Part shown: positions 1,953 to 16,198 of the stretch, piece by piece | How the letters are laid out: each line of letters begins with the position of its first letter | How positions within the stretch are numbered: the first letter of the stretch is position 1 | Source of the DNA: Candidatus Latescibacterota bacterium | Lineage (GTDB): Bacteria; Latescibacterota; UBA2968 | Length of the DNA stretch: 64,000 nt | NCBI GenBank assembly: GCA_965207885.1 | Contig: OZ242311.1 | Location: 2,016,001 to 2,080,000 of the forward strand | Reading direction: 5' to 3' | Position numbers and translations under genes: made by a program | Notes under the pieces: generated by a model | The model's database searches: none | The model's input: only the letters and a program-made list of their open reading frames with translations | Told to the model about the DNA's origin: nothing

Positions 1953-2078
1953 AAAAAGAGTGGGTTATGGTTTGCTGGACCATTCACGCTGTGTATGTTG
2001 CGGCAGAGGGCCACTGGCTGACTACCAATCCGACAGGGCCTTCTGCCGTTTCCGCTGAGAAATATCACGGCTGATTCT
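1953..2078 (-). ncRNA. Conserved structured 5' leader, copy A (candidate cis-regulatory RNA)
   Basis: One of 5 copies. Hairpin CGGCAGAAGGCCCTG-TCGGATTGGTAGTCAGC-CAGTGGCCCTCTGCCG, ending at the SD of the next gene. Confidence 0.6.
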
Positions 2079-2148
2079 TAAAATATTTGAGACGACCTGC
2101 CAGGTGGGACTTTGTTTGGCTGTGTGATTTGGGGGTATGCCATCGCGA

Positions 2149-4470
2149 TTAGTCGTCGTCGTCAATGATTACATTTACACCTACTACTACCGAGTCATAT
2201 CCACCCCCACTGGCCGTGTGCGTCAGCCGCACCCAGTAATCTATACTGTCATCGTCCTGGGCGGCTGTCACTGTCACCGTCTGCGCTGTGTTCCAGTTCT
2301 GATTAGTGAATGTGAGACTTGTGGGATCTGTCGATAGCTTGTCCGAATCAGAACTGCTGATTGTTACGGTGACATCCGCCGAGGGCTGGGTTTTTAAGGC
2401 CACAGTGTAGGTCTCGGTCGCTCCTTCTGTAACCGTGAATCCCGTCGGTGTCAGTACCAGGTCTGCTGTGCTCGTTGTACCATCGGCAACCGTAGAATTG
2501 TTCGTGACGTCCTGATAGGAAAAAAGAGCGAGCGCGTTGCCAGCCGTATCGATGAAGAATCCCGGCGCACTCTGGGCGAAGTAATTGTTGTAATCTACTT
2601 TGACACTGTCTCCCTCGGTTATGGCGGTCGATAGGGTCAGTGTGATATCGGATCCGGAAATACTGGCATTACTGGGTTCTACCACCCTGTTATTTACTGT
2701 AATCCCGGCGACGGCTTTGATGATCCGTCCCAGTTCTACATTGAGGAATGTGCTGAGCCAGGTTACCTGCGACGGCACGGTGATGTCCTCGCTGAAGGTT
2801 ATGGTGACCGTCAGGCCATCCGTGGATGTTGCAGCACTGGAGAAGGTGGGATACACACCATCTACTTTGTGATCGGAATCGAAAGGCATAGCCCGGTGGA
2901 ACAGGTCAGCGGTATTTCCCACGGCGTCCTTTATGGTACCGCCGTTGAGAGTGAGTCCACGCATGGGGAAGCCGATGCCGCGGCTTGCAGAGTCGCTCTC
3001 CTCCACTGTGTAGATAAAGACTGCGCCATCTTCATTCGCGTTAACGTAGCTGGCCTGTTCCACCGCACTATCCTCGAAGGCCAGATCAATCTGCGGCGTG
3101 CCGGTAACGGTGATGTCTTCGCTGAATGTCACTGTCACTACGATGGTATCGCCGATGGCGTAGGTGGCATCATTTTTCGGAGTAGAGGTGAATTCTATGC
3201 TTGAGATGGTAGGAGACACACCATCTACCTTGTGTTCACTGTCAGAGGCCACGGCGTCGTGGGTCAGGTCAGCGTTGTTATCATATTGGTCCTTGATAGA
3301 ACCGCCATTGAGGGTGAGTTTGTTCGCACCGATGGAGATGCCGTTGCTGTCATTGTCACCCTCCACCACCTGGGTGAGGAAGCTCACCAAGAGGGAGTCA
3401 GTAGAGACGGCGGAGTAATCCGCCCTCCTTGACTTCGCACCGATGTCCAGAGACAATAGGGGGGTGCCAGTGATGATTACTCCTTTGCTGAATGTCACTT
3501 CCACGACGATAGAGTCGCCAATGCCGTAAGCACCGTCGTCTCCTGGATCAGAGGTGATATCAATTGATGATATGGTCGGGTCTATAGCCGCCGTGATTGA
3601 GCCATCTACCTTATGACCGGACTGGTTGCCGATGCCAGAATAGATCCGATAGGCCACTGTACTCGTTCCCACGGCAGTGACGGCAGTGTGATTGATAAAA
3701 TTATGCCACGTACCGTTACTGTCCTGGTAGCCGCCGTCCATTTTTATGCCGTCGTCGTCGCGATCAGCCGATTGGACCTCATAGCCGAAGACCAGCTTGT
3801 TGGTGCCGGAGCCGCGGAGGTAACCGGCGGATTTCCAGTTGCTGCCGACCCAGAGGCCAAGTGCCGGATTGCCATCTACATCTACAGCTCTGCTGAAGGT
3901 GGCCTCGAACTCAATGGTCTCGCTTTCGCCATAGGTGTCTTCCCTGATAGGAGATGAGATTATCTCGATGTCCGTGATGTTCGGGTCATTGTCAATGATG
4001 GTGATCACGCACTTGTTGTCGCGTTCCGGATTAGTCATATCTGTGACATTGCCAGTAGTTGTAAATCGTGCAGTAAAAGTCTCGTCGCCCTCGAGCAGGC
4101 TGTCTTGTCTAGTTCGAAAGGTGCGTTTTGCCCGCCCAGCTATGCGTTCAGCATCCGTACTCCAAATCGCACCTGTATTCTGATGAACGTAATCAGTAGA
4201 ATCAGCAGTTCCAGGATCAGTATGCCAAAACGCACCGAAATTTAAACCGTGATCATGATCGGTCACAAGAACGAGAAATACATCGACATTTTCTCCTTCA
4301 ACAACTGTCGTATCCGGGCAGTCGAGGTACCAACTTGCATTGTGAGTAGCGACCTTGCTAGCTTGTTGATCTTGAGCGAATATAGTAGACGGGTTTCGAA
4401 GATTGATAAAACCTGCTGCGAGTAGTACGATGATCGCAGACCATACTAGCCTGTCAAATTTCTTTCTCAA
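2149..4470 (-). CDS. Secreted Ig-like repeat/Calx-beta/SwmB-like surface protein
   Basis: ORF track gives 2149..4533. A better start is TTG 4470 after AAGGAGG (MRKKFDRLVWSAIIVLLAAG signal peptide). Three Ig-like repeats each end in HKVDG; the C-terminal domain is Calx-beta-like. Confidence 0.85.
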   Translation of the reverse strand: MRKKFDRLVWSAIIVLLAAGFINLRNPSTIFAQDQQASKVATHNASWYLDCPDTTVVEGENVDVFLVLVTDHDHGLNFGAFWHTDPGTADSTDYVHQNTGAIWSTDAERIAGRAKRTFRTRQDSLLEGDETFTARFTTTGNVTDMTNPERDNKCVITIIDNDPNITDIEIISSPIREDTYGESETIEFEATFSRAVDVDGNPALGLWVGSNWKSAGYLRGSGTNKLVFGYEVQSADRDDDGIKMDGGYQDSNGTWHNFINHTAVTAVGTSTVAYRIYSGIGNQSGHKVDGSITAAIDPTISSIDITSDPGDDGAYGIGDSIVVEVTFSKGVIITGTPLLSLDIGAKSRRADYSAVSTDSLLVSFLTQVVEGDNDSNGISIGANKLTLNGGSIKDQYDNNADLTHDAVASDSEHKVDGVSPTISSIEFTSTPKNDATYAIGDTIVVTVTFSEDITVTGTPQIDLAFEDSAVEQASYVNANEDGAVFIYTVEESDSASRGIGFPMRGLTLNGGTIKDAVGNTADLFHRAMPFDSDHKVDGVYPTFSSAATSTDGLTVTITFSEDITVPSQVTWLSTFLNVELGRIIKAVAGITVNNRVVEPSNASISGSDITLTLSTAITEGDSVKVDYNNYFAQSAPGFFIDTAGNALALFSYQDVTNNSTVADGTTSTADLVLTPTGFTVTEGATETYTVALKTQPSADVTVTISSSDSDKLSTDPTSLTFTNQNWNTAQTVTVTAAQDDDSIDYWVRLTHTASGGGYDSVVVGVNVIIDDDD

Positions 4471-4545
4471 ACTATACCTCCTTAAACGTAGTAGGTTATG
4501 AAGGTCTTGTAGACAGGTGAGTACGGTAAGCATAACAACAAATGC

Positions 4546-4578
4546 TTACCATCCAAGTATGCCGATTGTCTTTTCCAA
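4546..4578 (-). pseudogene. Degenerate N-terminus remnant or 10-aa uORF (MEKTIGILGW*)
   Basis: AAGGAGG SD plus TTG; homologous to the MKKITGILGW start of the gene at 1939; in-frame TAA at 4546-4548. Confidence 0.6.
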
Positions 4579-4591
4579 GTCATTCCTCCTT

Positions 4592-4762
4592 AAAAAGAGT
4601 GGGTTATGGTTTGCTGGACCATTCACGCTGTGTATGTTGCGGCAGAGGACCACAGGCTGACTACCAATCCGACTGGGACCTTCTGCTGTTTACGCTGAGA
4701 AATATCACGGCTGATTCTCAGCGTAAATTAGCCTCAAAGCGGTTCAACTTTGGGTTACATAT
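4592..4762 (-). ncRNA. Conserved structured 5' leader, copy B
   Basis: Near-identical to copies A/C/D/E; directly downstream of the sigma54 promoter at 4792-4808. Confidence 0.6.
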
Positions 4763-4791
4763 TCTCTTATTTGACAATATAATTTTAACTA

Positions 4792-4808
4792 TGCAAAATC
4801 TGTGCCAA
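4792..4808 (-). promoter_or_regulatory. sigma54 (-24/-12) promoter
   Basis: TTGGCACAGATTTTGCA versus consensus YTGGCACGRNNNTTGCW; GG-N10-GC spacing is exact. Confidence 0.85.
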
Positions 4809-4903
4809 CGTGAATTTGTCACAAGATAATTTATCATAAAGCATTATTTATATTTAAGTAATTAAAAAAGAAATATAAAAATCAGTCTGGAATTTTATAT
4901 TCT

Positions 4904-4945
4904 CAATTACCATATATCGTGATATTTAGCCATATATGGTGATTG
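4904..4945. promoter_or_regulatory. Putative enhancer (UAS) dyad for a sigma54 activator
   Basis: CAATTACCATATAT-N14-ATATATGGTGATTG (13/14 dyad), ~100-140 bp upstream of the -24 box; conserved at 12525-12566. Confidence 0.65.
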
Positions 4946-5015
4946 TCGATATTAAGAAAGCCCGTCTGGAGTTGCCCGCTTGAGTGGATAGTGTAGAAGG
5001 TTTCCCACCTTATCT

Positions 5016-8000
5016 TTACCAGCGCAGGGTGCCTCGTGCGAGCACCTCATGGTCTGCGCCGTTTAGCAACGGGCTTTCGCGGCGTTGCACATCAACGCCC
5101 AATTCGAAGTGGGGACGCTCCCGGTTCAAAAGCGCAAGGCCGTACCCTGCTCGGTAGTCCCGGCCATACTCAGAGGTCCCAAATCCGATTCTCGGTGTCC
5201 CAACGAAGCGTCTGCCCACAGGCAGACCGTAGCCTAAATCGGCTTTGAGGCGTCTTTCTGAAGTGTGTCTGTCGGAGACCCTGAACTGCTCCATCGTCTC
5301 TCTGCCCCACAGCATTTCGGCACCACTTACTGCCTGACCGCCCCACGATGGTGAAACCCGCGCTACAAATCCCAGAGGCGTTGACGGCCTCGGATTGTAA
5401 CTGAACGAGATCGCCACACCCTTATCCTGGAACCCTTTCGCCTGGTGTACCAGCAGTGTCCGCACCCGCACGTCGGCCGACAGCCCGGACAAGGGATTTA
5501 ATGCGATCAGGCTACCGGCGAGGTCCACGCCCGCACCCGTTTCGGCGTCGCCGCCGTCGTGCCGCAACCCAACCTCCAGGCGCGGCTGCAACGACATTCC
5601 ATCCCCCAACGCGTAGCTGCGCGAGGCTTCCAGACCCGCACGCAACCGCGTCACCAACGCCCGTGTCGCCGCCAGATTCCCCGCTGGACCAGCTATGTCT
5701 GCGTTCGCCATCGCCACCCCCAGCGCATCCGTCTTGAATGCCAGCCCAAAGCCGCCCACCGACGTAAACTCGCCCCGCAGCCCCGCCGCGGCCATCGCCA
5801 TCGACAGCCCCGTCTCCAGCACCGCACCTGCGCCCGGCGTCAAGCACAACCCACCCTTGCCGTATCCGGTCACACCCCAGAGTGTGATGCGGTCGGTCGC
5901 CCTGTAGCCCAGCCACGGGTAGAGTCCTGTCACCGACGAAGCCAACTGGCCGTTGTCGATGTCTGCATACCTGCCCTGGCCCCGGCTGTGCGCCAGTGTC
6001 AGGCCCGTCACCAGCGGCCCCTTCGCGTAGTCAAAGCCGAACAGCAGCGAGCGCACAGCCCCGTTCAGTGACAGCGTACCTTCACGCCCGCTGAAATCCG
6101 AATGGGAACCGTTGCTCCAAAATGACAGGACGCTCCCGCGACGCATCTCACGGTTAAGCGTGAACGCAGAGCCGGTCAGCACATCGCCTCTACCACCCAC
6201 GGATATCCGGAGAAGTTTAGCGATGTCTAGGTCGCCACCACTTGTCCGGTGTCCGCCTGCTGCCATGCCGCCCAATCGATTGAGGAAACCCTGCGCTATA
6301 TCGCGCTCCAGGCTCCGTCTCAGGTGCCATCCCGCGACCCGACCTTCAAAGCCAGGATCGCGTGGGGCGGCAATGCGTTTCTTCACTTGCTCGACCACAC
6401 GCACTGCCACTGTGCGCCCGAAACGCGCCATATAGGCTTGAGGCATGGGGTCGGAGTTGGCAATCGTACCCGTTGCCTCGGCGCGGGTGATGGTGAGTGT
6501 GCGCAGCGTGTTGCCATTGCCATCCATCAGCCGTGCGTTGCTGATCTTGACCTTCACTGTCTCGCCGTTGTCATTCACCGTGTCGTCAATGATCCGGACG
6601 AATGGTCTTTGATGCACCTCTCTCTTATCCATCCAGTCCGAATACTTGGGGCGAGCCAGATAGTCCGTCCCTTCGATGGCGGTCCCTCCCGAGATGGTCT
6701 CGAAGTCGTACACGATGTAGTAGCGCTGCGAAGGGCGCGAAGCGGTGACGGTGAACCGGAGCCACCCGTCATCCTCATTCGCGGTTGCATCCCTGATCGA
6801 TAGCGTCGGGTACGAAGCGTTGAGGGTGAGCGACGGGGCGTTCAAGAGTAGTCTGCCGTCCGGGTCGCACAGCGCGCCGTCCAGGTTGCAGGCCTGATTG
6901 GCAGTCATCGCGACGATGACCTCGCCGTCATCGGTTTCTGGACGCACCTCCATCCGCCAATGGTTGCTGAAGGTCGCGAACTTCGTGGTGCCGGGAAGAC
7001 GCCTGCGTTTCTTGTGGATGCGCTGTGCCTTAACGATTTCACCGTCCGTCACTGTGAAGACGTAGTCGCGCATGTCCTTGAAGCTCTTGGAGATGGCTGT
7101 CGAGAGCTTCAGGTCAAAGACGTAGTGAAGCCGCCCGCCCGATCCGTCCACCGGGTTCTTCTCCACGAGTCTCGCGGTAAGCCCGGTGCTCGGTGTGCCT
7201 TTGACAATATCCGAGGGGGTGCTATCGCCCGTGTCGTTCGTCGCGATGACGCGGACCATGTACTCCGGGCCGTTGGTCACACCCGTGATCGTGTAGCTCG
7301 TGTCCTCATCGTCCTCCAGGATCGCCTGGCGCCCGTCTGTCTCCGCATCGGCAAAGGTCTCGCCCCCCGACTTCCACTCGACCTTATATCCTCTGGCACC
7401 TATCGGTCTCTCCCAGGTGACCTCGAGTTGTCCGTGCTTCGGGATCACCTGCACGCCAGTTACCTGGTCTGGAGGATTCGTGAACAGCTTTATGAGCACC
7501 ACCTCTCCGAAAGTCCAGTCCAGGTCAAACTGGTCCGGAAGACTGTCTCGCCAGTCCTGGACCTGATCGCCGAAGTGCACGACCACACCCGATCCGGTAA
7601 GGGATAAAATGGCAGTCAGGGCGTTCCAAGGGGGATCGAACCCAAGTGGTAACGACTTATTGATAGGGTCGTACTCCAGCCGGTTCAGGGTGTACGTATT
7701 GCCGAGGATCTCAAACGACCGTGGCACCAGCGCGCCCGTCCCGTTCGTCTTGTTGTACCCCAGGAGGTTCCCGTTGAGGTCAACCGTCAGGTTCGCGGTG
7801 AACGCCGCCATAGGGTCCGCAGTCGGCGCGCCCGCCGCGCGCGCCACCTTGATCGTGTAGGTCGCCGTGGTGTTGTCCTCGGCCGTGACCGTGATCGTGA
7901 CCGTGTTGAGACCCTCGGACAGCGCCAGTGTGGCCGTGCCCGGCGTGGTCGTGTCCGTATCGCCCGCGATCGCCACCGTCGCGCCGTCGTCGTTCTTCGT

Positions 8001-8225
8001 CGCCGTTACCACGATTGAAGTCGTGTCGTTCTGAACAAACACGCGGTAGGCCATCGTGTTCGCGGAGAATGTCGGGCTGAGCGTCAAGCTCGTGCCGCCA
8101 CCTGTCGTCAGCGCCAGCGCGCTCAGTGTGGCGTCGCCGGACTGCGCCATCACAGCGTGCGGAATCGCCAGTAGCGCGGCGAGTGCCAACAGAAGGATAC
8201 GGTGGAAAGTCGTGACTCTGTGCAT
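5016..8225 (-). CDS. Autotransporter-like adhesin: cadherin-like beta-sandwich, FN3, Calx-beta, C-terminal outer-membrane beta-barrel
   Basis: Start reassigned to ATG 8225 (AAGGAG SD; MHRVTTFHRILLLALAALLAIPHAVMA signal peptide). Motifs: DATLSAL...ITVTAED (cadherin-like), PPDQVTGVQV...YKVEWK...YMVRV (FN3); terminal TLRW beta-signal-like strand. Confidence 0.8.
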   Translation of the reverse strand: MHRVTTFHRILLLALAALLAIPHAVMAQSGDATLSALALTTGGGTSLTLSPTFSANTMAYRVFVQNDTTSIVVTATKNDDGATVAIAGDTDTTTPGTATLALSEGLNTVTITVTAEDNTTATYTIKVARAAGAPTADPMAAFTANLTVDLNGNLLGYNKTNGTGALVPRSFEILGNTYTLNRLEYDPINKSLPLGFDPPWNALTAILSLTGSGVVVHFGDQVQDWRDSLPDQFDLDWTFGEVVLIKLFTNPPDQVTGVQVIPKHGQLEVTWERPIGARGYKVEWKSGGETFADAETDGRQAILEDDEDTSYTITGVTNGPEYMVRVIATNDTGDSTPSDIVKGTPSTGLTARLVEKNPVDGSGGRLHYVFDLKLSTAISKSFKDMRDYVFTVTDGEIVKAQRIHKKRRRLPGTTKFATFSNHWRMEVRPETDDGEVIVAMTANQACNLDGALCDPDGRLLLNAPSLTLNASYPTLSIRDATANEDDGWLRFTVTASRPSQRYYIVYDFETISGGTAIEGTDYLARPKYSDWMDKREVHQRPFVRIIDDTVNDNGETVKVKISNARLMDGNGNTLRTLTITRAEATGTIANSDPMPQAYMARFGRTVAVRVVEQVKKRIAAPRDPGFEGRVAGWHLRRSLERDIAQGFLNRLGGMAAGGHRTSGGDLDIAKLLRISVGGRGDVLTGSAFTLNREMRRGSVLSFWSNGSHSDFSGREGTLSLNGAVRSLLFGFDYAKGPLVTGLTLAHSRGQGRYADIDNGQLASSVTGLYPWLGYRATDRITLWGVTGYGKGGLCLTPGAGAVLETGLSMAMAAAGLRGEFTSVGGFGLAFKTDALGVAMANADIAGPAGNLAATRALVTRLRAGLEASRSYALGDGMSLQPRLEVGLRHDGGDAETGAGVDLAGSLIALNPLSGLSADVRVRTLLVHQAKGFQDKGVAISFSYNPRPSTPLGFVARVSPSWGGQAVSGAEMLWGRETMEQFRVSDRHTSERRLKADLGYGLPVGRRFVGTPRIGFGTSEYGRDYRAGYGLALLNRERPHFELGVDVQRRESPLLNGADHEVLARGTLRW

Positions 8226-8238
8226 AGTTGGTCTCCTT

Positions 8239-8398
8239 AAACAGAGTGGGTTATGGTTTGTTGGACCATTCTCGCTCTGTATGTTGCGGCAGAAGATCAC
8301 AGGCTGACTACCAATCCGACTGGGACCTTCCGCTGTTTCCGTAAATATCACGACTCATTCTCTGAGCCTCAAAACGATTCAAATTTCGGGTCACATAT
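8239..8398 (-). ncRNA. Conserved structured 5' leader, copy C (no promoter of its own visible)
   Basis: Same hairpin and invariant loop; begins ~12 bp after the activator stop codon at 8411. Confidence 0.6.
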
Positions 8399-8410
8399 CC
8401 GATACACCAT

Positions 8411-11400
8411 TTAAGGACGTTTGATCCCCAGTTTTTTCATTTTGCCATACAGGGTAGAAGGCGGTAATCTTAGCAGTGCCGCTGCGCCCCTATTCCCGCT
8501 TATCTGATAGTTGGCGATTTTGAGCACTTCGAGAATATAGTGTCGCTCATATTCATCCAAAGGCACGACTTCGCGGTCCTGAGAAACTGTCACGGTGCGC
8601 CTTTTAGGATCAAGATCCGGACCTGTGATTCGGAAACCATACAGTCCTAGATCACCCACTTCGATTTGAGAACCGCGACACACGATGACGGCTCGCTGTA
8701 TCGTATGTTCCAGTTCCCGCACATTGCCAGGCCAATCGCAGGCTTGCAACACCTCGATAACCTCTGGCGTCAAAGGGGCTATTTGCTTGCCCAAATGTGT
8801 GGCCATGCGATTTTTGAAAAACTCAGCGAGGTGCGGGATATCCTCCTTGCGCTCGCGCAAGGGAGGGAGATAGATTGGAAAAACCTGGAAACGATAATAC
8901 AGATCCTCGCGGAATGCTCCTGAACTGACCAGTTCCTCAAGATTGCGATTCGTCGCTGCCACAATGCGCGCCTGCACCGACAGCGTCTCGCTACCTCCAA
9001 CGCGCTCAAATGTACCCTCTTCCAGTAATCGCAACATCCTGACCTGTGTTTGCGGAGCCATATCGCTGACCTCGTCCAAAAAGAGCGTACCGCCCTTAGC
9101 CAGTTCTACCTTGCCCAATCTGCGAGACACTGCACTGGTAAACGCTCCCTTTTCGTGACCAAAAAGCTCACTGTCGATCAGCGTTGCTGGCAATGCTCCG
9201 CAGTTGACCTGTATAAAAGGTCCATCGCTATTGGGACTCTGCGCGTGTAACACCCGCGCAGCCAATCCCTTGCCTACACCCGTCTCGCCTATAAACAGCA
9301 CGGACAGATCAGTGGGTACTACCTTTCTAAGTTGGAATTGAAACTGTTGCAAAACCTCGCTCTGACCGATAAACTCGTTACTCCCCTGGTTATTGAGTGT
9401 CGCAGTCAGGCCCTCAATACGCGGATCTGGCTCTACAGAGAGTTGAATTTGCGCGATCTCTGAGTAATTGAGGTCGCGATCTATCGCTCTGACCTGAAAC
9501 GTGTACTCGCCCGGTGGCAAGTTCTGATAATGTGCCCTCATTTCTCGGGTCGCAGGCTGCCAGTTGGGGTCGTATCCCTTCAGGCGATAGATATAGAGCA
9601 TGTCGCGGGGATGGGTAGAAAAACTCAGGCTCTTGTATTCAAAAATTACATCTTGATCCATCGTAGAGACGATGTCTTCCTTCGGGTTCTCATAGACCTG
9701 ACCAGCGACAACTTGAATCAGGCGAATCATGGGCGGCGTCTTTCGCAGGCGGTAGCGCACCAGCGTGTTTTGGGCTGTACCGAAATAGAAGGCGCCATCG
9801 CGGTCTTCGAGTATTTTAAGCACCGGTCCTATGTGCGGTGATTTGATGGTCTGGAAAAGCTGGCCATCGTAGTGAACTACGCCGCCGTCTGTGCCGAGCC
9901 AGAGGCGACCTTGAGAGTCCTCAAGCAAGCAATGGATGCGGTTGTTCGGCAAACCGTCTTCAGTCGTGAAGGTCTGGAAGGTGCTACCATTAAAACAGGC
10001 AAGACCGCCCTGGGTCGCCACCCACAGGTTGCCATGGCGGTCTAATAGCAGGTCACTGACCCTGTCATTGATCAGCCCGTCTTCAACCCCGTAAAATTTG
10101 AGGTCATCTTTGGGATGCCAGCGTGCGAAGCCCTTGTCGATGTCAGAGAAATGTTGATGAGCGAGATAAAAATAGACCTCGCCATTGCGCCCGGTAATCA
10201 CAGTACCGATGTAGCTGAAAGGATCCTTATTTTTATCTTTTACAATAATGGTTTGGAACTGCTCACCCCGCTGACAAGTGAGTCTCAAAGGACTGGCAAA
10301 AAGTGCTCTTTTTTCTTTGTCTTTTTTATTTTCCCAATGACCGAAAAGAAATTGCCCTTCCCGATCCTGGGCAATTGCACAAACACTGCTTGAACCTGCG
10401 GTTGTTTGCATTTTTTTTATCTTCTGCCCATCGTAGCGGAATAAGCCATTGATGCCGCCAAACCACAGATACCCGTCGTGGTCTTCGTAGATGGCAAAAC
10501 AGTTATTGATATCAAAATCATCCTCAGGGCCTATCAGGTCAATGGCCTCCCCATCAAAGCGAAAGACGCTATTGCTTTGATATGTAAAAACAGGAGACAC
10601 AGACCCCACCCATATATCACCGCGACTGTCTTGCACGATCTGCGAGACCTCACTCACGCTTTCAGAAGCCCTTGCACTGAAGTCGAAAACGCTGATACTA
10701 TGCGCATCGTAAAGACCGACACCACCCCACGTAGCAAACCAATACTGATGTTCGCGATCCTGGAACACGGCTTTGACTGCGGGATGGGGCAACCCATCGG
10801 GAGGCGTAAACTTGCTGAACCCATCACCGTCCTGATAGAGCACGCCTTCTGAGGTGCAAAACCACATCCGACCTTCTCGATCGCATTGAATTTTGCGCAG
10901 TGGACTACCCAAATCTACCTGAACAGGCTGGAAATTGCCATCGGCATAGCACCAGAGTTCGTTCTGATGTCCACGTTGACCAAACCACACCTTACCGGTA
11001 TCGTCCTGCCCCACCGCATAGCTTATATCGACTGTGGGAACCCCCTCTTTCTCTTCATAGCGATGGAAGGAAGTGCCATCAAAGCGAATGAGGTGGTTAA
11101 AGCCAAACCACAGGTGGCCTTTCGGGTCCTGGGCAATGCCCCGACACTGTTTACGACGAAGTAGCGGCTCGTAGTGCTTAAGATAGAGCGGCATCAGGTC
11201 GTGGAACACAGTCCCGTCGTAATATCCCAGGGTCCTGTGACCGCCACACCATATACGCCCCTCACGATCTTCGTAGATGAACTGCACAGCGCGGCCTGCG
11301 ATCCCCTCATCTTCCAAATGATGGAAATTTGTCCCATCGTACCAGCAGACCCCATTTCGTGTACCAAACCACAACCGATCACGTCTGTCCTTTTGAACAA

Positions 11401-11617
11401 AATAAATACTATCATTAATAAGACCGTCCTGTTGCGTAAAATTTCGAAACTCGTCTCCATCAAAGCGACTAACGCCGTTATCACAGGTGGCGAACCAGAG
11501 ATAGCCCGCGCTGTCTTCGGCAATGTGTTCAATGCGCATCCCGGCCAGACCATCGGCTATAGAATAAGTCCGCCAGGTGCCTTTGCGGTTAAGTGATTGG
11601 ATCATAAAAATCCCCAT
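8411..11617 (-). CDS. sigma54-dependent enhancer-binding protein with N-terminal two-component-regulator propeller repeats and Y_Y_Y domain (paralog 1)
   Basis: DxxGxLWF propeller repeats; YIYRLKGYD...[15 protein letters not shown] (Y_Y_Y); GETGVGK Walker [27 protein letters not shown]; C-terminal Fis-type HTH. Start may be ATG 11605 by homology with paralog 2. Confidence 0.92.
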
Positions 11618-11684
11618 GATACAGGTAAAAATTTAGTTCATAGTGGGGCTCCTTTCTAACTACTGAGAAGGTAACCGCCAAAAC

Positions 11685-11814
11685 GATGCTGTTGCCGAAT
11701 TAGTCAAGAGGGAGTCTGCGGTTGGAAAAATGGCTATTTGTGGCCTGAATGCAGGCTCTGTAAGCCCTATGTTTAGTTGTATTGAGATAGAATTCGGAAT
11801 TCGGCAACAGCATC
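11685..11814. mobile_element. MITE-like element, 130 bp, perfect 17-bp terminal inverted repeats, 6-bp target-site duplication
   Basis: GATGCTGTTGCCGAATT (11685-11701) / AATTCGGCAACAGCATC (11798-11814); CAAAAC flanks both sides (11679-11684, 11815-11820). Confidence 0.85.
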
Positions 11815-11839
11815 CAAAACGGGTCAAGTCCACTAACAC

Positions 11840-12163
11840 TTACAAGTCCTCGACTCTTTCGTACTCATTACGGGCACGACGTAATAATCCCGTCTTCTTA
11901 GTATCAACGACAGGACGAGTTTCCACATTATTCGTAACGGACATTGCCAAAGCCACAACCCATCCAATAAACGTCCATCCAAGAAATAAATTGATTACCA
12001 GGATGGAGGCTCGGTTTCTATGGTATCGAAAAAACGCAGTAATTGCCGGAGCGAAGTAAAGTGCCAGTAAGAGCACCAAAATAAACTGACCCATCCCGGT
12101 ATTTAACAAAGTGTCCCTGAGATCTGACAAGGCTAAATACAACATTAATAAGTCATAATACAT
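11840..12163 (-). CDS. Superinfection immunity-like membrane protein (T4 Imm family)
   Basis: LYFAPAITAFFRYHRNRASILVINLFLGWTFIGWVVALAMS matches the family pattern YFLPxIIA..R.H.....I..NLFLGWTxIGWxxAL. Confidence 0.8.
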   Translation of the reverse strand: MYYDLLMLYLALSDLRDTLLNTGMGQFILVLLLALYFAPAITAFFRYHRNRASILVINLFLGWTFIGWVVALAMSVTNNVETRPVVDTKKTGLLRRARNEYERVEDL

Positions 12164-12220
12164 ATCTAATTTCTCATCGTGTAGTTTGATAAGAAATAAA
12201 CCGACAAGCCTTTAACATCA

Positions 12221-12384
12221 AAAAGAGTGGGTTATGGTTTGCTGGACCATTCCTGCTCTATATGTTGCGGCAGAAGGCCACAGGCTGACTACCAATCCGA
12301 CTGGGACCTTTTGACGTTTTTGCTGAGAAATATCACGGCTGATTCTCTGAGCATCAAAACAGTTCAAATTTTGGGTCACATATT
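12221..12384 (-). ncRNA. Conserved structured 5' leader, copy D
   Basis: Same hairpin and loop; downstream of the sigma54 promoter at 12411-12427. Confidence 0.6.
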
Positions 12385-12410
12385 CTTCTTTGCGAAATAA
12401 CTCTAAACTA

Positions 12411-12427
12411 TGCAATATCCGTGCCAA
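12411..12427 (-). promoter_or_regulatory. sigma54 (-24/-12) promoter
   Basis: TTGGCACGGATATTGCA, a perfect match to YTGGCACGRNNNTTGCW. Confidence 0.9.
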
Positions 12428-12524
12428 AGTGATTTTTCACAAGATAATTTTAATCATAACGTGTTATTTATGTTGAATTAATTAAAAGAGGAGATATATA
12501 AATCAGTCTGAAATTTTATATTCT

Positions 12525-12566
12525 CAATCACCATATATCGCGATATTTAACCATATATGATGATTG
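12525..12566. promoter_or_regulatory. Putative enhancer (UAS) dyad
   Basis: CAATCACCATATAT-N14-ATATATGATGATTG (13/14 dyad), at nearly the same distance from the promoter as 4904-4945. Confidence 0.65.
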
Positions 12567-12582
12567 CCGATATTAACAGAAC

Positions 12583-15500
12583 TTAAGAGAATTTGATTCC
12601 CAGTTTTCTCATTTTGCCATACAGGGTAGAAGGCGGTAGTCCCAGCAGTACCGCTGCTCCCCTATCCCCACTTATCTGATAGTTGGTGATTTTGAGTACT
12701 TCGAGAATATAGTGTCGCTCATATTCGTCCAAAGGCACGACTTCGCGGTCTTGAGAAACTGTCACGGTGCTCCTCTTAAGATCAGGAGTCGGGCCTTCGA
12801 TTCGCAAACCATGCAGTCCGAGATCCCGCACTTCGATTTGCGAACCGTGACACACGATTACGGCTCGCTGTATCGTATGCTCCAGTTCACGCACATTGCC
12901 AGGCCAATCGTAACTTTGCAATACCTTTATAACTTCTGGCTCGAGGGGAGCTATTTGTTTACCCAGGTGTGTAGCCATGCGATGCTTGAAAAACTCAGAT
13001 AGGTCCGGTATATCTTCCTTGCGCTCGCGCAGTGGAGGTAGAAGAATTGGAAAAACCTGGAAACGATAATACAGATCCTCGCGGAAAATACCTGTGCTAA
13101 CCATATCCTCCAAATTGCGATTCGTCGCAGCCACAATGCGCGCCTGTATCGATAGTGTCTCGCTACCTCCAACGCGCTCATAAGTGCCCTCTTCCAGCAA
13201 GCGCAACATCCTGGCCTGTGTTCCCACAGCCATATCGCTGACCTCGTCTAAAAAGAGCGTGCCGCCCTTAGCCAGTTCTACTTTGCCCAGCCTGAGAGAC
13301 TCTGCGCCGGTAAACGCTCCTCGTTCGTGACCAAACAGTTCACTATCGATCAGCGTTTCAGACAGTGCACCGCAGTTGACCTGTATAAAAGGTCCATTAC
13401 AATAGTGACTCTGTGCGTGTAACACCCGCGCAGCCAATCCCTTGCCTACACCCGTCTCGCCTATAATTAGCACCGTTATATCAGTGGGTGCTACCTTTCT
13501 GAGCCGGATCTGAAATTGTTGCAAAACCTCGCTCTGACCGATAAACTCGTTATCCCCCTGATTATTGAGTGTCGCAGTCAGGCCCTCAATACGCGGATCT
13601 GGCTCTACCGAGAGTTGAATCTGCGCCATCTCTGAGTAATTGAGATCACGGTCTATCGCTCTGACCTGAAAGGTGTAGTCTCCCGGTGGCAAGTTCCGGT
13701 AGTAGGCCCGCGTCTTTCGTGTCGCAGGCTGCCAGTCGGGGTCGTATCCTTCAAGACGATAGACATAGAGCATGTCGCTGGGATGGGTGGAAAAACTCAT
13801 CCCCTTATACTCAAAAGTCACCTGTTGGTCTGTCGTAGAGCCGATGCCTTCTTTCGGGTTCTCATAGACCTGATCGGCGACAACTTGAAGCAGACGCACC
13901 CTGGGCGAGGTCTGTCGCAGGCGATAGCGCACCACCGTGTTTTGTGCTGTGCCAAACCAGAAAGATCCATAGCGATCTTCGAGTATTTTGAGCACCGGTC
14001 CTATGTGCGATGACTTGATGGTCTGGAAAAGCTGGCCATCGTAGTGAACCACGCCGCCGTCTGTGCCAAGCCAAAGGTGGCCTTGCGAATCTTCGAACAA
14101 ACAACGGATGGCATTGCTCGGCAGACCATCTTTAGTCGTAAAGTTGTGGAAGGTACTGCCATCAAAGCAACTGAGACCTCTTTGAGTAGCGACCCACAGG
14201 GTGCCATTGCGGTCTTCTATAAGATCGGTGACTCTGTCATCTATCAGTCCGTCTTCAACCTCGTAAAATTTGAGGCCATCTTCGGGATGCCAGCGTGCGA
14301 AGCCCTTGTTCGTGTCGGAGAAATTTTGGTGGATGAGATGAAAATAAACCTCGCCATTGCGCCCGGTAATCACAGTGCCAATGCGGCTGTAAGGATCTTT
14401 ATCTTTTTCCTCTGAAAAAATGGTTTGGAACTGCTCACCTTGCTGACAAATGAGTCTCAATGGGTGGACAAAAAGGTATCTTCTTCTCTTTTTATTTTCG
14501 TTTTCCCAATGACCAAAAAGGAATCTCCCTTGCGAATCCTGATCAATTGCACAAATACTGCCTGAACCTGCGGGTGTTTGCATTTTTTCGAGCTTCTGCC
14601 CTTCGTAGCGAAACAAGCCATTGACGCCGCCAAACCACAGGCATCCATCACGGTCCTCGTAGATGGCAAAACAGTTGTCTATATCGCCATCTTCAGTGCC
14701 TACAAAGTCAAAGTGTTCGCCATCAAAGCGAAAAACGCTTTTCTCCAGACGGTTGAGAAAAGGAGCGGCATATCCGATCCATATATCTCCTCGCCGATCT
14801 TGTACGAGTTGTGAGATTTCACTTACTTCTCTGGATAATTTCGCACTGAGGTCGAAAACGCTGATACTCTGTGCATCGTAGAGCCCAATACCTCCCCAGG
14901 TGGCAAACCAATACTGATATTCGCGATCATGGAATACAGCTTTGACCGCGGGATGGGGCAGGCCATTGTCAGAGGTAAACCTGTTGAACCCATCACCATC
15001 CTGAAAGAACACGCCTTGTGACGTGGAAAACCACATTCGACCTTCACTATCACACTGAATTTTGCGCAGTGTGCCCTCCAAATCTACCTGAACAGACTGA
15101 AAGGAGCCATCTGCATAGCACCAGAGTTTATTTTCGTATTCGCGATAGCCGATCCACACCTTACCGGTATGGTCCTGCCCCACAGCATAGCTCGTCAGAA
15201 TGCGTGGCGGAAACCCCTCTTCCTCTTCATAGCGATGGAAGGATTGACCGTCAAAGCGGATGAGGTAGTTAAAACCAAACCACAGGTGGCCTTTCGGATC
15301 CTGGGCAATTCCCCGGCACTGGTTGGACCACTGTGGTGAAGGAGGTTTCTCGTAGTGCTGAAGATAGAGTGGGATCAGGTCGTGAAACACAGTGCCGTCG
15401 TAATATCCCAGAGTGCGATGACCACCACACCATATACGCCCCTCACGGTCTTCGTAGATGGACTGCACGGCACGGCCTGCAATCCCGTCATCCTCCAGAT

Positions 15501-15786
15501 AGTGGAAATCTGCTCCGTCATACCAGCAGACCCCATTTAGTGTACCAAACCACAACCGATCACGATTGTCCTGTAAAACAAAATGAACGCAGTCATCCAC
15601 AAGACCATCCTGTCGCGTAAAATTCTGAAACTCATCTCCGTCGAAGCGACTGACGCCGTTGTCCCAGGTAGCGAACCAGAGATAGCCTTCGCTATCCTCG
15701 GCGATGTGTTCAATGCGCATCCCGGCCAGGCCATCGGCTATAGAATAAGTCCGCCAGGTGCCCGTGCGATCAAGTGATTTGAGCAT
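12583..15786 (-). CDS. sigma54-dependent enhancer-binding protein with propeller + Y_Y_Y sensor (paralog 2)
   Basis: Colinear and highly similar to 8411-11617; canonical GAFTGA, GETGVGK, HTH. Confidence 0.92.
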   Translation of the reverse strand: MLKSLDRTGTWRTYSIADGLAGMRIEHIAEDSEGYLWFATWDNGVSRFDGDEFQNFTRQDGLVDDCVHFVLQDNRDRLWFGTLNGVCWYDGADFHYLEDDGIAGRAVQSIYEDREGRIWCGGHRTLGYYDGTVFHDLIPLYLQHYEKPPSPQWSNQCRGIAQDPKGHLWFGFNYLIRFDGQSFHRYEEEEGFPPRILTSYAVGQDHTGKVWIGYREYENKLWCYADGSFQSVQVDLEGTLRKIQCDSEGRMWFSTSQGVFFQDGDGFNRFTSDNGLPHPAVKAVFHDREYQYWFATWGGIGLYDAQSISVFDLSAKLSREVSEISQLVQDRRGDIWIGYAAPFLNRLEKSVFRFDGEHFDFVGTEDGDIDNCFAIYEDRDGCLWFGGVNGLFRYEGQKLEKMQTPAGSGSICAIDQDSQGRFLFGHWENENKKRRRYLFVHPLRLICQQGEQFQTIFSEEKDKDPYSRIGTVITGRNGEVYFHLIHQNFSDTNKGFARWHPEDGLKFYEVEDGLIDDRVTDLIEDRNGTLWVATQRGLSCFDGSTFHNFTTKDGLPSNAIRCLFEDSQGHLWLGTDGGVVHYDGQLFQTIKSSHIGPVLKILEDRYGSFWFGTAQNTVVRYRLRQTSPRVRLLQVVADQVYENPKEGIGSTTDQQVTFEYKGMSFSTHPSDMLYVYRLEGYDPDWQPATRKTRAYYRNLPPGDYTFQVRAIDRDLNYSEMAQIQLSVEPDPRIEGLTATLNNQGDNEFIGQSEVLQQFQIRLRKVAPTDITVLIIGETGVGKGLAARVLHAQSHYCNGPFIQVNCGALSETLIDSELFGHERGAFTGAESLRLGKVELAKGGTLFLDEVSDMAVGTQARMLRLLEEGTYERVGGSETLSIQARIVAATNRNLEDMVSTGIFREDLYYRFQVFPILLPPLRERKEDIPDLSEFFKHRMATHLGKQIAPLEPEVIKVLQSYDWPGNVRELEHTIQRAVIVCHGSQIEVRDLGLHGLRIEGPTPDLKRSTVTVSQDREVVPLDEYERHYILEVLKITNYQISGDRGAAVLLGLPPSTLYGKMRKLGIKFS

Positions 15787-15903
15787 AATAAAACCTTATG
15801 ATACAGGTGAAAATTTTAGTTCACATCGGATAACACATCACGACTATAAACCCTTCTTAATCTATGTATTTTCATAACCAAATTTTAAGGAAAATGTTGC
15901 GAT

Positions 15904-15957
15904 TTACGAATCTCTTTCCCTGAAGAGTTGAACTGAAACAATCTGGTTTTTCATCAT
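15904..15957 (-). CDS. Possible 17-aa uORF/leader peptide MMKNQIVSVQLFRERDS
   Basis: AAGAGGT SD 6 nt before ATG, just downstream of leader copy E; very short. Confidence 0.3.
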   Translation of the reverse strand: MMKNQIVSVQLFRERDS

Positions 15958-16004
15958 ATTATTACCTCTTGATTTTTGAATTTTAAAACTATACATTTAA
16001 AAAT

Positions 16005-16105
16005 AGAGTGGGTTATGGTTTGTTGGACCATTCCTGCTCTGTATGTTGCGGCAGGGGGCCACAGGCTGACTACCAATCCGACATGGCCTTCTGCCGTTTT
16101 TGCTG
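16005..16105 (-). ncRNA. Conserved structured 5' leader, copy E
   Basis: Same hairpin and invariant loop; AT-rich upstream flank without a sigma54 box. Confidence 0.55.
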
Positions 16106-16198
16106 CAATGAAAAAATAAAATAAATTTGTGTTTTTTTAATCTGATACTAAATAAAGTAAAAGTCAAGATTTTCTATATTGTTACCCGTTTTTTATGA

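Follow-up and report, generated by a model that had tools for sequence, protein, structure and literature searches.

What is the role of a non-coding repeat that occurs five times in one stretch of a bacterial chromosome, each time in the same orientation and 5' of a gene? The question is raised by a stretch of 64,000 nucleotides (nt), hereafter the window, from the genome of a Candidatus Latescibacterota bacterium (assembly GCA_965207885.1, contig OZ242311.1, positions 2,016,001 to 2,080,000). The original prediction, made from the letters of this stretch, had placed the repeat on the minus strand as a cis-acting leader RNA, possibly a riboswitch, built around an invariant 17-nt loop. At the level of sequence we demonstrate here a family of structured RNA elements that comes in two forms, with different strand signals and with complementarity between the forms. 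The signals of the commonest form, to which one of the five window copies (E) belongs, point to an RNA read from the opposite (plus) strand. We give roughly even chances to the explanation developed below, in which E-type copies would be small-RNA genes on that strand and the window copies A to D would be complementary sense copies in messenger RNA (mRNA) leaders, the two being brought together by RNA pairing.

A repeat family restricted to one genus

A repeat search and a search with a 19-nt core, GTCGGATTGGTAGTCAGCC, agreed on five copies of the repeat (family D1), all in the same sense and 5' of co-oriented genes, exactly as had been predicted. The core matches the window perfectly five times, always on the minus strand, against a chance expectation of 0.02, and none of 100 shuffles reached five. 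The copies, delimited by their matches to a covariance model, are as follows.

1953-2062, minus strand: copy A (D1 repeat 1953-2080), identical to copy E at 88 of 96 positions; on the minus-strand sequence, hairpin P1 at about 2001-2048 and hairpin P2 at about 1957-1993
4592-4702, minus strand: copy B (D1 repeat 4592-4719), identical to E at 86 of 97 positions
8239-8349, minus strand: copy C (D1 repeat 8239-8366), identical to E at 85 of 97 positions
12220-12330, minus strand: copy D (D1 repeat 12220-12347), 122.4 bits, identical to E at 87 of 97 positions, longest exact run 26 nt
16001-16110, minus strand: copy E, in the sense of the original prediction (D1 repeat 16001-16128), 121.3 bits

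The genome (6.23 Mb, 51% GC, a single contig) contains the exact core in seven copies, and an eighth, diverged copy was found with the covariance model. The expectation that the element would not be a known Rfam family has held. Rfam 15 searched over the whole window gave a tRNA as its sole match (44143-44215, minus strand, 69.9 bits) and nothing on the repeat; copy A searched at E values up to 10 gave RMST_5 only (E 6.7), which is noise; eight related loci gave no match; and at locus L047, searched at E values up to 5, the element was covered by noise only (CssrA, 16.4 bits).

Of 20 other genomes of the genus, 13 gave a BLAST match to the element; none of 40 further relatives did. The covariance model (R1) raised the first figure to 15 of 20, with no match in 10 genomes from five other genera of the family; in a phylum-wide sample it found the element in 14 of 19 genomes of the genus and in none of 131 genomes from 45 other genera. 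A metagenome scan with a 21-nt pattern returned a single contig, an AT-rich chance match without the hairpins. On this sequence evidence, the repeat is an RNA family not yet described and restricted to one genus of uncultured Latescibacterota.

Two hairpins supported by covariation

On the minus strand the five window copies share a long hairpin, P1, GGCAGAAGGCC.../...GGCC(C/U)UCUGCC, around an identical loop; then, after the linker CGCAACAUACAGAG, a second hairpin, P2, AGAG..GGG-AAUGGU-CCARCAA-ACCAU-..CCC.CUCU. The predicted stem and second hairpin (AUGGU-CCARCAA-ACCAU) are therefore both present, in the sequences and in the alignment. The proposed exchange of the inner P1 pairs, CUG/CAG in A and CAG/CUG in B, C and D, was also recovered; it amounts to one flip of U-A to A-U, and copy E has a mismatch at this position. 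We also agree that the indels do not fit a conserved peptide: by eye, a UUG frame from the loop meets an early stop in A and B and is put out of register by a 4-nt indel.

The R1 alignment comprises 67 matches representing 49 distinct copies. It has 85.7% of its cells paired, against 35-60% in controls with slid partners, although this alignment was fitted to the model itself. With the additional genomes, covariation became evident: compensatory changes occur at 17 of 25 pairs across the two hairpins, compared with 7.7 +/- 1.6 in shuffles, and none of 500 shuffles matched this value. At several loci (L051, L064, L053, L080:3732, L052), P1 or P2 is retained with a wholly different sequence. The structure of the family and its covariation are real as judged from these alignments, and the overall fold is one of two or three independent hairpins. 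Tertiary pairing between loops 1 and 2, or between the linker and the AAUGUA block described below, was judged by eye and found no support from covariation.

Identity of the loop among the five window copies was confirmed; its invariance across the family was not. The 17-nt loop is confined to one sub-clade, in which it is kept in 20 of 21 long-loop copies from seven genomes. Other species have a shorter loop, for instance GCUCGGGUUGGCAGC, which shares with the 17-nt loop only the motif YGGRUUGG.

A long inverted repeat present at many loci, with a U-run after P2 in the five window copies, could also act at the DNA level, whether as an operator palindrome, as a site of recombination or as a miniature mobile element; alternatively, P2 could serve as an intrinsic terminator or attenuator. 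We consider both very improbable. The distance between the arms varies, with loops of 9 to 17 nt and a 4-nt indel; half-compensated G.U and A.C states fit an RNA and not a protein operator; stem sequences are fully replaced with pairing kept (L051, L064, L053, L080), which again fits RNA; and the orientation of the copies is not random. A mobile or REP-like element was rejected because the inverted repeat is internal and the downstream gene is co-oriented in 44 of the 46 copies for which one was listed. As a terminator, P2 was likewise rejected: it has AGAG/CUCU at the base of its stem, it went unflagged in the terminator scan, and its U-tract is not conserved, being absent in L046, L063, L059 and L055.

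Two forms and the strand from which they are read

Over all copies, the strand of the original prediction has more A.C mismatches than G.U pairs (96 versus 60), and the opposite strand was therefore inspected. Copy B does have G.U pairs on the minus strand, as had been claimed. Just 3' of P2, most copies carry a conserved block, AAUGUA-N17-AAUCAA, read on the other strand as TTGATT-N17-TACATT. We sorted the 49 distinct copies by the presence of this block: 29, including window copy E, have it (opposite-strand form) and 20, including A to D, do not (sense form). In the opposite-strand form, the hexamers TTGnnT and TAnnTT are separated by 17 nt in 27 of the 29 copies and by 16 nt in two, the pattern ends 6-8 nt ahead of the first hairpin, and information content is highest on the two hexamers. 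As a pattern match, these 29 copies have a candidate promoter of their own. Beyond P1 the same copies carry a GC-rich hairpin and an A-run, which on the opposite strand become a hairpin followed by U6-8. The two forms differ in three further respects:

A.C mismatches versus G.U pairs on the sense strand: 61 versus 12 with the block (29 copies), 32 versus 24 without it (20 copies)
A-run beside the upstream hairpin: 24 of 29 with the block, 2 of 20 without it
perfect sigma-54 promoter within 130 nt upstream: 0 of 29 with the block, 10 of 20 without it

Read on the opposite strand, the block-carrying copies have 61 G.U pairs and 12 A.C mismatches. When the search for sigma-54 sites was widened to 260 nt, two block-carrying copies of one genome showed a perfect site at -162.

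A Rho-independent terminator is indicated on the opposite strand by the consensus fold and by individual copies. The first T-run lies directly 3' of a hairpin (-6.7 to -21.4 kcal/mol) in 16 of 23 short-loop copies, and in four of six E-type copies the P1' hairpin is followed by U5. Aligned independently with MAFFT and folded with RNAalifold on the opposite strand, 20 short-loop copies yielded three clean hairpins and a U-run, with compensatory changes at 12 of 34 pairs and 72 G.U pairs versus 12 A.C mismatches; 95.7% of cells were paired on this strand versus 86.8% on the sense strand. Wobble counts, these alignments and the folds of copy E given below all indicate that structure is better kept on the putative small-RNA strand.

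Copy E has the same layout, with the following predicted parts.

15969-15974 (TTGATT) and 15992-15997 (TACATT), plus strand: sigma-70-type promoter-like site with a 17-nt spacer, identified by sequence and recurring in 29 copies
16003-16101, plus strand: predicted small RNA of about 100 nt, from fold and wobble pairs
16003-16042, plus strand: hairpin P2'
16043-16047, plus strand: linker AUGUU
16048-16097, plus strand: hairpin P1'
16097-16101, plus strand: U-run

The plus strand of copy E folds at -46.5 kcal/mol (z -3.74), and none of 200 shuffles was as good; for the minus strand the values are -33.4 kcal/mol and z -2.39, with five of 200 shuffles as good. Two A.C mismatches in P1 on the minus strand become G.U pairs on the plus strand. 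Copy E lies 214 nt upstream of a sigma-54 activator gene (12583-15786), from which the predicted small RNA diverges. The eighth, diverged copy of this genome (C1:4180874-4180985, plus strand, outside the window; 38 bits) is of the short-loop kind. Because it carries the opposite-strand promoter block and the upstream hairpin, the genome probably holds two small-RNA genes of the family.

Complementarity between the two forms

The predicted E RNA is 86-92% complementary to copies A to D. Between E and the six sense copies of its own genome, 83-88 of 96-97 positions are identical, and the exact runs are 20-29 nt long. Among 15 sense copies from seven genomes, the loop shows no pairwise diversity (0.000), and the values for the linker (0.060) and the P2 loop (0.087) are low; the stems reach 0.18-0.26 and the sequence just upstream 0.34. 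Conserved single-stranded parts combined with drifting stems are what loop-initiated antisense pairing predicts. In E-type copy L040 a single change in the loop (U to C in the sense) would give a G.U pair with the leaders of its own genome.

We infer the following scheme. Form 1 would be a free-standing small-RNA gene on the other strand from its neighbour. A sigma-70-type promoter would precede two hairpins with a short linker between them, and a Rho-independent terminator would close the unit; copy E is laid out in this way. Form 2 would consist of sense copies embedded in mRNAs, either downstream of sigma-54 promoters or between cistrons (A to D). Pairing of the E RNA with these leaders would begin by loop-loop kissing, with the invariant 17-nt loop, the second loop and the linker as starting points, and it would lower or gate the translation or stability of each cistron in operons controlled by sigma-54 activators. 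The small RNA would itself be titrated by the leaders.

The opposite-strand RNA might alternatively be the only functional one, with other targets, and copies A to D would be relics that spread with a sigma-54 promoter cassette. Promoter, upstream site and leader were indeed duplicated en bloc (repeats D1 and D11), some sense copies elsewhere are truncated or decayed (L062, L036, L058), and the sense copies lack a strand-specific structural signal. This seems to us quite unlikely, since the complete absence of loop diversity over the 15 sense copies, whose stems differ at 18-26% of sites, argues against neutral relics. Moreover, each cistron has a sense copy kept right ahead of its ribosome-binding site, even at the intercistronic positions of A and C, where there is no promoter.

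The sense copies in sigma-54-controlled operons

All large genes in the stretch around the copies lie on the minus strand. The features that bear on the placement of the copies are listed here.

2-1939 and 2149-4533, minus strand: genes A and B, for two paralogous proteins of no clear family
4792-4807, minus strand: sigma-54 promoter TGGCACAGATTTTGCA upstream of copy B, a perfect match to TGGCAC-N5-TTGCA
4864-4955, minus strand: upstream activator-site-like repeat D11, containing palindromes of the ACCATATATGG type, ahead of the sigma-54 promoter of copy B
5016-8225, minus strand: gene for a cadherin-like/fn3/Calx-beta protein
8411-11617, minus strand: sigma-54 activator 1, a Reg_prop/Y_Y_Y sensor with Sigma54_activat (Pfam: Sigma54_activat 3.6e-63, Reg_prop 3e-54)
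11840-12163, minus strand: gene for an Imm_superinfect protein of 107 amino acids
12411-12426, minus strand: sigma-54 promoter TGGCACGGATATTGCA upstream of copy D, matching TGGCAC-N5-TTGCA at 11 of 11 positions
12485-12576, minus strand: second copy of D11 (89% identity), 5' of the sigma-54 promoter of copy D
12583-15786, minus strand: sigma-54 activator 2, with the architecture of activator 1 plus HTH_8 (Pfam)

The two activators (1067/1068 amino acids) are encoded in tandem, and D11 is a duplicated block of 92 nt with palindromes. Copy D lies 56 nt ahead of the Imm_superinfect gene, which is followed by activator gene 1. Copy C is found between the stop of activator 1 (8411) and the cadherin-like gene, 13 nt ahead of the ATG of the latter (8225), and copy A between gene B and its paralogue, 13 nt ahead of a TTG start (1939); these two copies occupy the space between a stop codon and the next start and have no promoter of their own. 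Copy B lies 58 nt ahead of the ATG of gene B and 13 nt ahead of a TTG frame interrupted by a stop. Copies A to C end 4-6 nt ahead of the ribosome-binding site AAGGAGG. For A to D, the predicted location in mRNA leaders or intercistronic regions is therefore borne out; what finds no support is a minus-strand RNA at every copy.

A third perfect sigma-54 promoter precedes the copy at genome position 1257358. Of the 39 matches to TGGCAC-N5-TTGCA in the genome, only three carry the element, which is therefore no general component of sigma-54 promoters; the idea that such a promoter lies within the element was rejected because the spacing is wrong. Across the family, the downstream genes encode secreted or surface proteins, lipoproteins and activators, and the domains detected in 25 scanned downstream proteins include Dockerin_1 (4), LRR_4 (3), LRR_8 (3), WD40 (2) and CARDB (2).

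Is every copy a sense leader?

This arrangement gives substance to the explanation closest to the original prediction, namely that all copies are cis-acting sense leader RNAs, either riboswitches or protein platforms, controlling translation, stability or readthrough of the downstream gene, and that the opposite-strand signals are incidental. Several observations favour it, and some of them weigh against our explanation. Of the 46 copies with a listed downstream open reading frame (at least 100 amino acids), 44 have the nearest one running in the sense direction, one exception being a spurious frame over the real Imm gene, and in three further copies a co-oriented gene begins next to the element; upstream frames run either way, 16 of 48 being opposite. 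Such co-orientation is what a cis leader predicts, so our explanation needs divergent or bidirectional promoters. Promoters with a bidirectional -10 element are a familiar notion. Beyond the element, the sense strand of short-loop copies has a conserved tract with a CA-rich part, a further hairpin and a ribosome-binding site, ending GAGAAAGGAGG; these copies may also be leaders. Copies A to C abut the ribosome-binding site, loops and linker are more conserved than stems, and the downstream genes have a common theme of secreted or surface proteins and sensor regulators.

Further points tell against our explanation independently of the sense-leader alternative. Since the opposite-strand class was defined by the promoter pattern, the frequency of that pattern in the class is circular; this circularity touches the promoter block alone, and the wobble counts, the A-run and the sigma-54 site remain independent of the class definition. 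The sense copies show no strand preference (32 A.C versus 24 G.U). Their minimum free energy favours the opposite strand in 15 of 20 cases, a bias that a GU-rich complement would yield anyway. Between E-type copies and the sense copies of the same genome, 68 transitions keep a wobble pair and 26 break one, to which we give little weight because three shared columns and common descent explain much of this excess. No other convincing target of the E RNA was found in the genome, where blastn-short gave scattered matches of 12-20 nt, mostly intragenic.

We nevertheless hold it unlikely that all copies are sense leaders. The wobble counts side with the opposite strand, at 61 to 12 for the block-carrying copies and 72 to 12 for the short-loop set. 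An A-run with a GC-rich hairpin behind it would be pointless at the start of a sense leader; on the other strand it is a terminator. At no fewer than 11 loci elsewhere, strong sense-direction terminators of a neighbouring RNA stand directly upstream of the element. Because the promoter, terminator and wobble signals of the element are hard to explain otherwise, and in view of these neighbouring terminators, the 44/46 co-orientation may be read as that of a divergent gene pair or a cis-antisense pair rather than as proof of a purely sense element.

For a riboswitch in particular we found no support. We saw no multi-helix junction, binding pocket, supported pseudoknot or conserved terminator/antiterminator pair. 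A single alternative pairing came to light, between GGAUUGG of the loop and CCCRCUCU, and it rests on one-sided changes, without two-sided compensation. The mRNA strand is not the constrained one (A.C exceeds G.U by 96 to 60, and by 61 to 12 in the commonest form), and a range of one genus is unusual for a metabolite riboswitch. The suggested relation to JUMPstart/ops also fails. The TGGTAG of the loop, presumably only a loose likeness of the ops core, is absent from the short-loop copies, in which UAGU is deleted; and a search for NusG paralogues with PF02357 gave one match per genome in 21 of 21 genomes of the genus, so there is no RfaH/LoaP-type partner.

Comparison with known systems

Latescibacterota belong to the FCB superphylum, as does Bacteroides. 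DonS-type RNAs are described as a family of cis-antisense RNAs of 78-128 nt from polysaccharide utilization loci of Bacteroides, encoded divergently to susC homologues, which are surface proteins, and lowering their expression (PMC7366714, which cites Cao et al. 2016). They are the closest described analogue of our family, which is likewise multi-copy, of similar size and divergent from adjoining genes for secreted or surface proteins. The analogy has its limits: no sequence or Rfam relation was found between the two, the Latescibacterota family has additional copies in sense in other operons and pairing is predicted in trans, the partner operons depend on sigma-54 and an activator, and the RNA here is predicted from sequence.

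Loop-loop (kissing) antisense systems such as CopA/CopT, RNA I/RNA II and hok/sok are comparable, in that both RNAs here are predicted hairpins with complementary loops much better conserved than their stems. The loops of our elements contain what we take to be YUNR-type motifs, UUGG in the leader and CUGA in the predicted small RNA. However, those systems are cis-acting plasmid or toxin-antitoxin modules, whereas the present one lies on the chromosome and would comprise, in this genome, one or two small-RNA genes together with six leader copies. Multi-copy RNA elements adjoining sigma-54 promoters and an activator gene also recall Qrr1-5 and GlmY/GlmZ. Here, by contrast, the sigma-54 promoters drive sense leaders into genes and not a terminated small RNA, and the predicted small-RNA promoter is of the sigma-70 type.

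Additional features beside the element

Upstream of copy E, a TTGACT (16162-16167, minus strand) lies inside TAGAAAATCTTGACTTTTAC and is conserved upstream of all six E-type copies. If it were a sense promoter, copy E would fall within the leader of the activator gene and a cis-antisense pair would be possible as well. Just past copy E, a short frame with a good ribosome-binding site, AAGAGG, reads MMKNQIVSVQLFRERDS (15904-15957, minus strand). The corresponding frame in four of five related species is M(M/I)(K/T)(N/D)Q(I/V/N)VSVQ(L/F)FR-stop; in the fifth (L042) a stop follows directly after the ATG, with VKNQLVSVQPFR-stop read from a GTG instead. The short frame may encode a leader peptide for the activator gene, or its conservation may instead reflect a promoter on that strand.

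In gene B, positions 4540-4578 (minus strand) contain a TTG start and the beginning of a signal peptide as in paralogue A, followed by a TAA after about 10 codons; the long frame resumes at the ATG at 4533, without a signal peptide. The 5' end of the gene may represent a pseudogene start or a shifted start.

A second conserved, structured RNA-like block of about 170 nt was noticed next to the element at L047:1680-1960 (minus strand). It is also present upstream of the element in L082, L046, L084, L048, L072, L060, L052, L083, L068 and L061, and in our genome at C1:354716-354776, outside the window. This block has its own promoter-like site (TTGCAA-N17-TATTGT) and a long-range helix of CCGGUUAAAUGC with GCAUUUGACCGG, is followed by one or two strong terminators and converges on the element at many loci. 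By BLAST it occurs in 12 of 21 genomes of the genus, two of which lack the element. It had no Rfam match at the gathering threshold, the best sub-threshold one being c4-2 RNA (23.4 bits versus a cut-off of 41, E 0.02). A candidate sigma-54 promoter in 'TGGCATTTGACCGGC' was discarded, as this sequence belongs to another structured RNA.

Implications

For genome scanning, the locus teaches that a repeat lying ahead of genes like a leader can itself be a gene of the opposite strand. What distinguished the two strand readings here was wobble-pair asymmetry, combined with promoter and terminator signals.

More tentatively, and with somewhat less confidence than doubt, we propose that duplication has built a circuit in which a sigma-70-driven small RNA, divergent from a sigma-54 activator gene and probably antisense to the leader of that gene, pairs in trans, by way of an invariant kissing loop, with six copies of its own sequence, placed in sense directly ahead of the ribosome-binding sites of cistrons switched on by the activators. 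In such a circuit the small RNA would set the threshold of the regulon, and induced leaders would soak it up, giving a switch-like response.

A full-text literature search found no report on regulatory RNAs of Latescibacterota. If our explanation is true, this would be the first small-RNA family for a phylum that has no cultured model. Its links would be with sigma-54 activators of the sensor type and with genes for proteins that are secreted or lie at the surface, those of the window having cadherin-like, fn3 and Calx-beta domains and those of relatives dockerin and LRR domains. It would also offer a testable case of a small RNA and its targets born of one sequence through duplication in both orientations.

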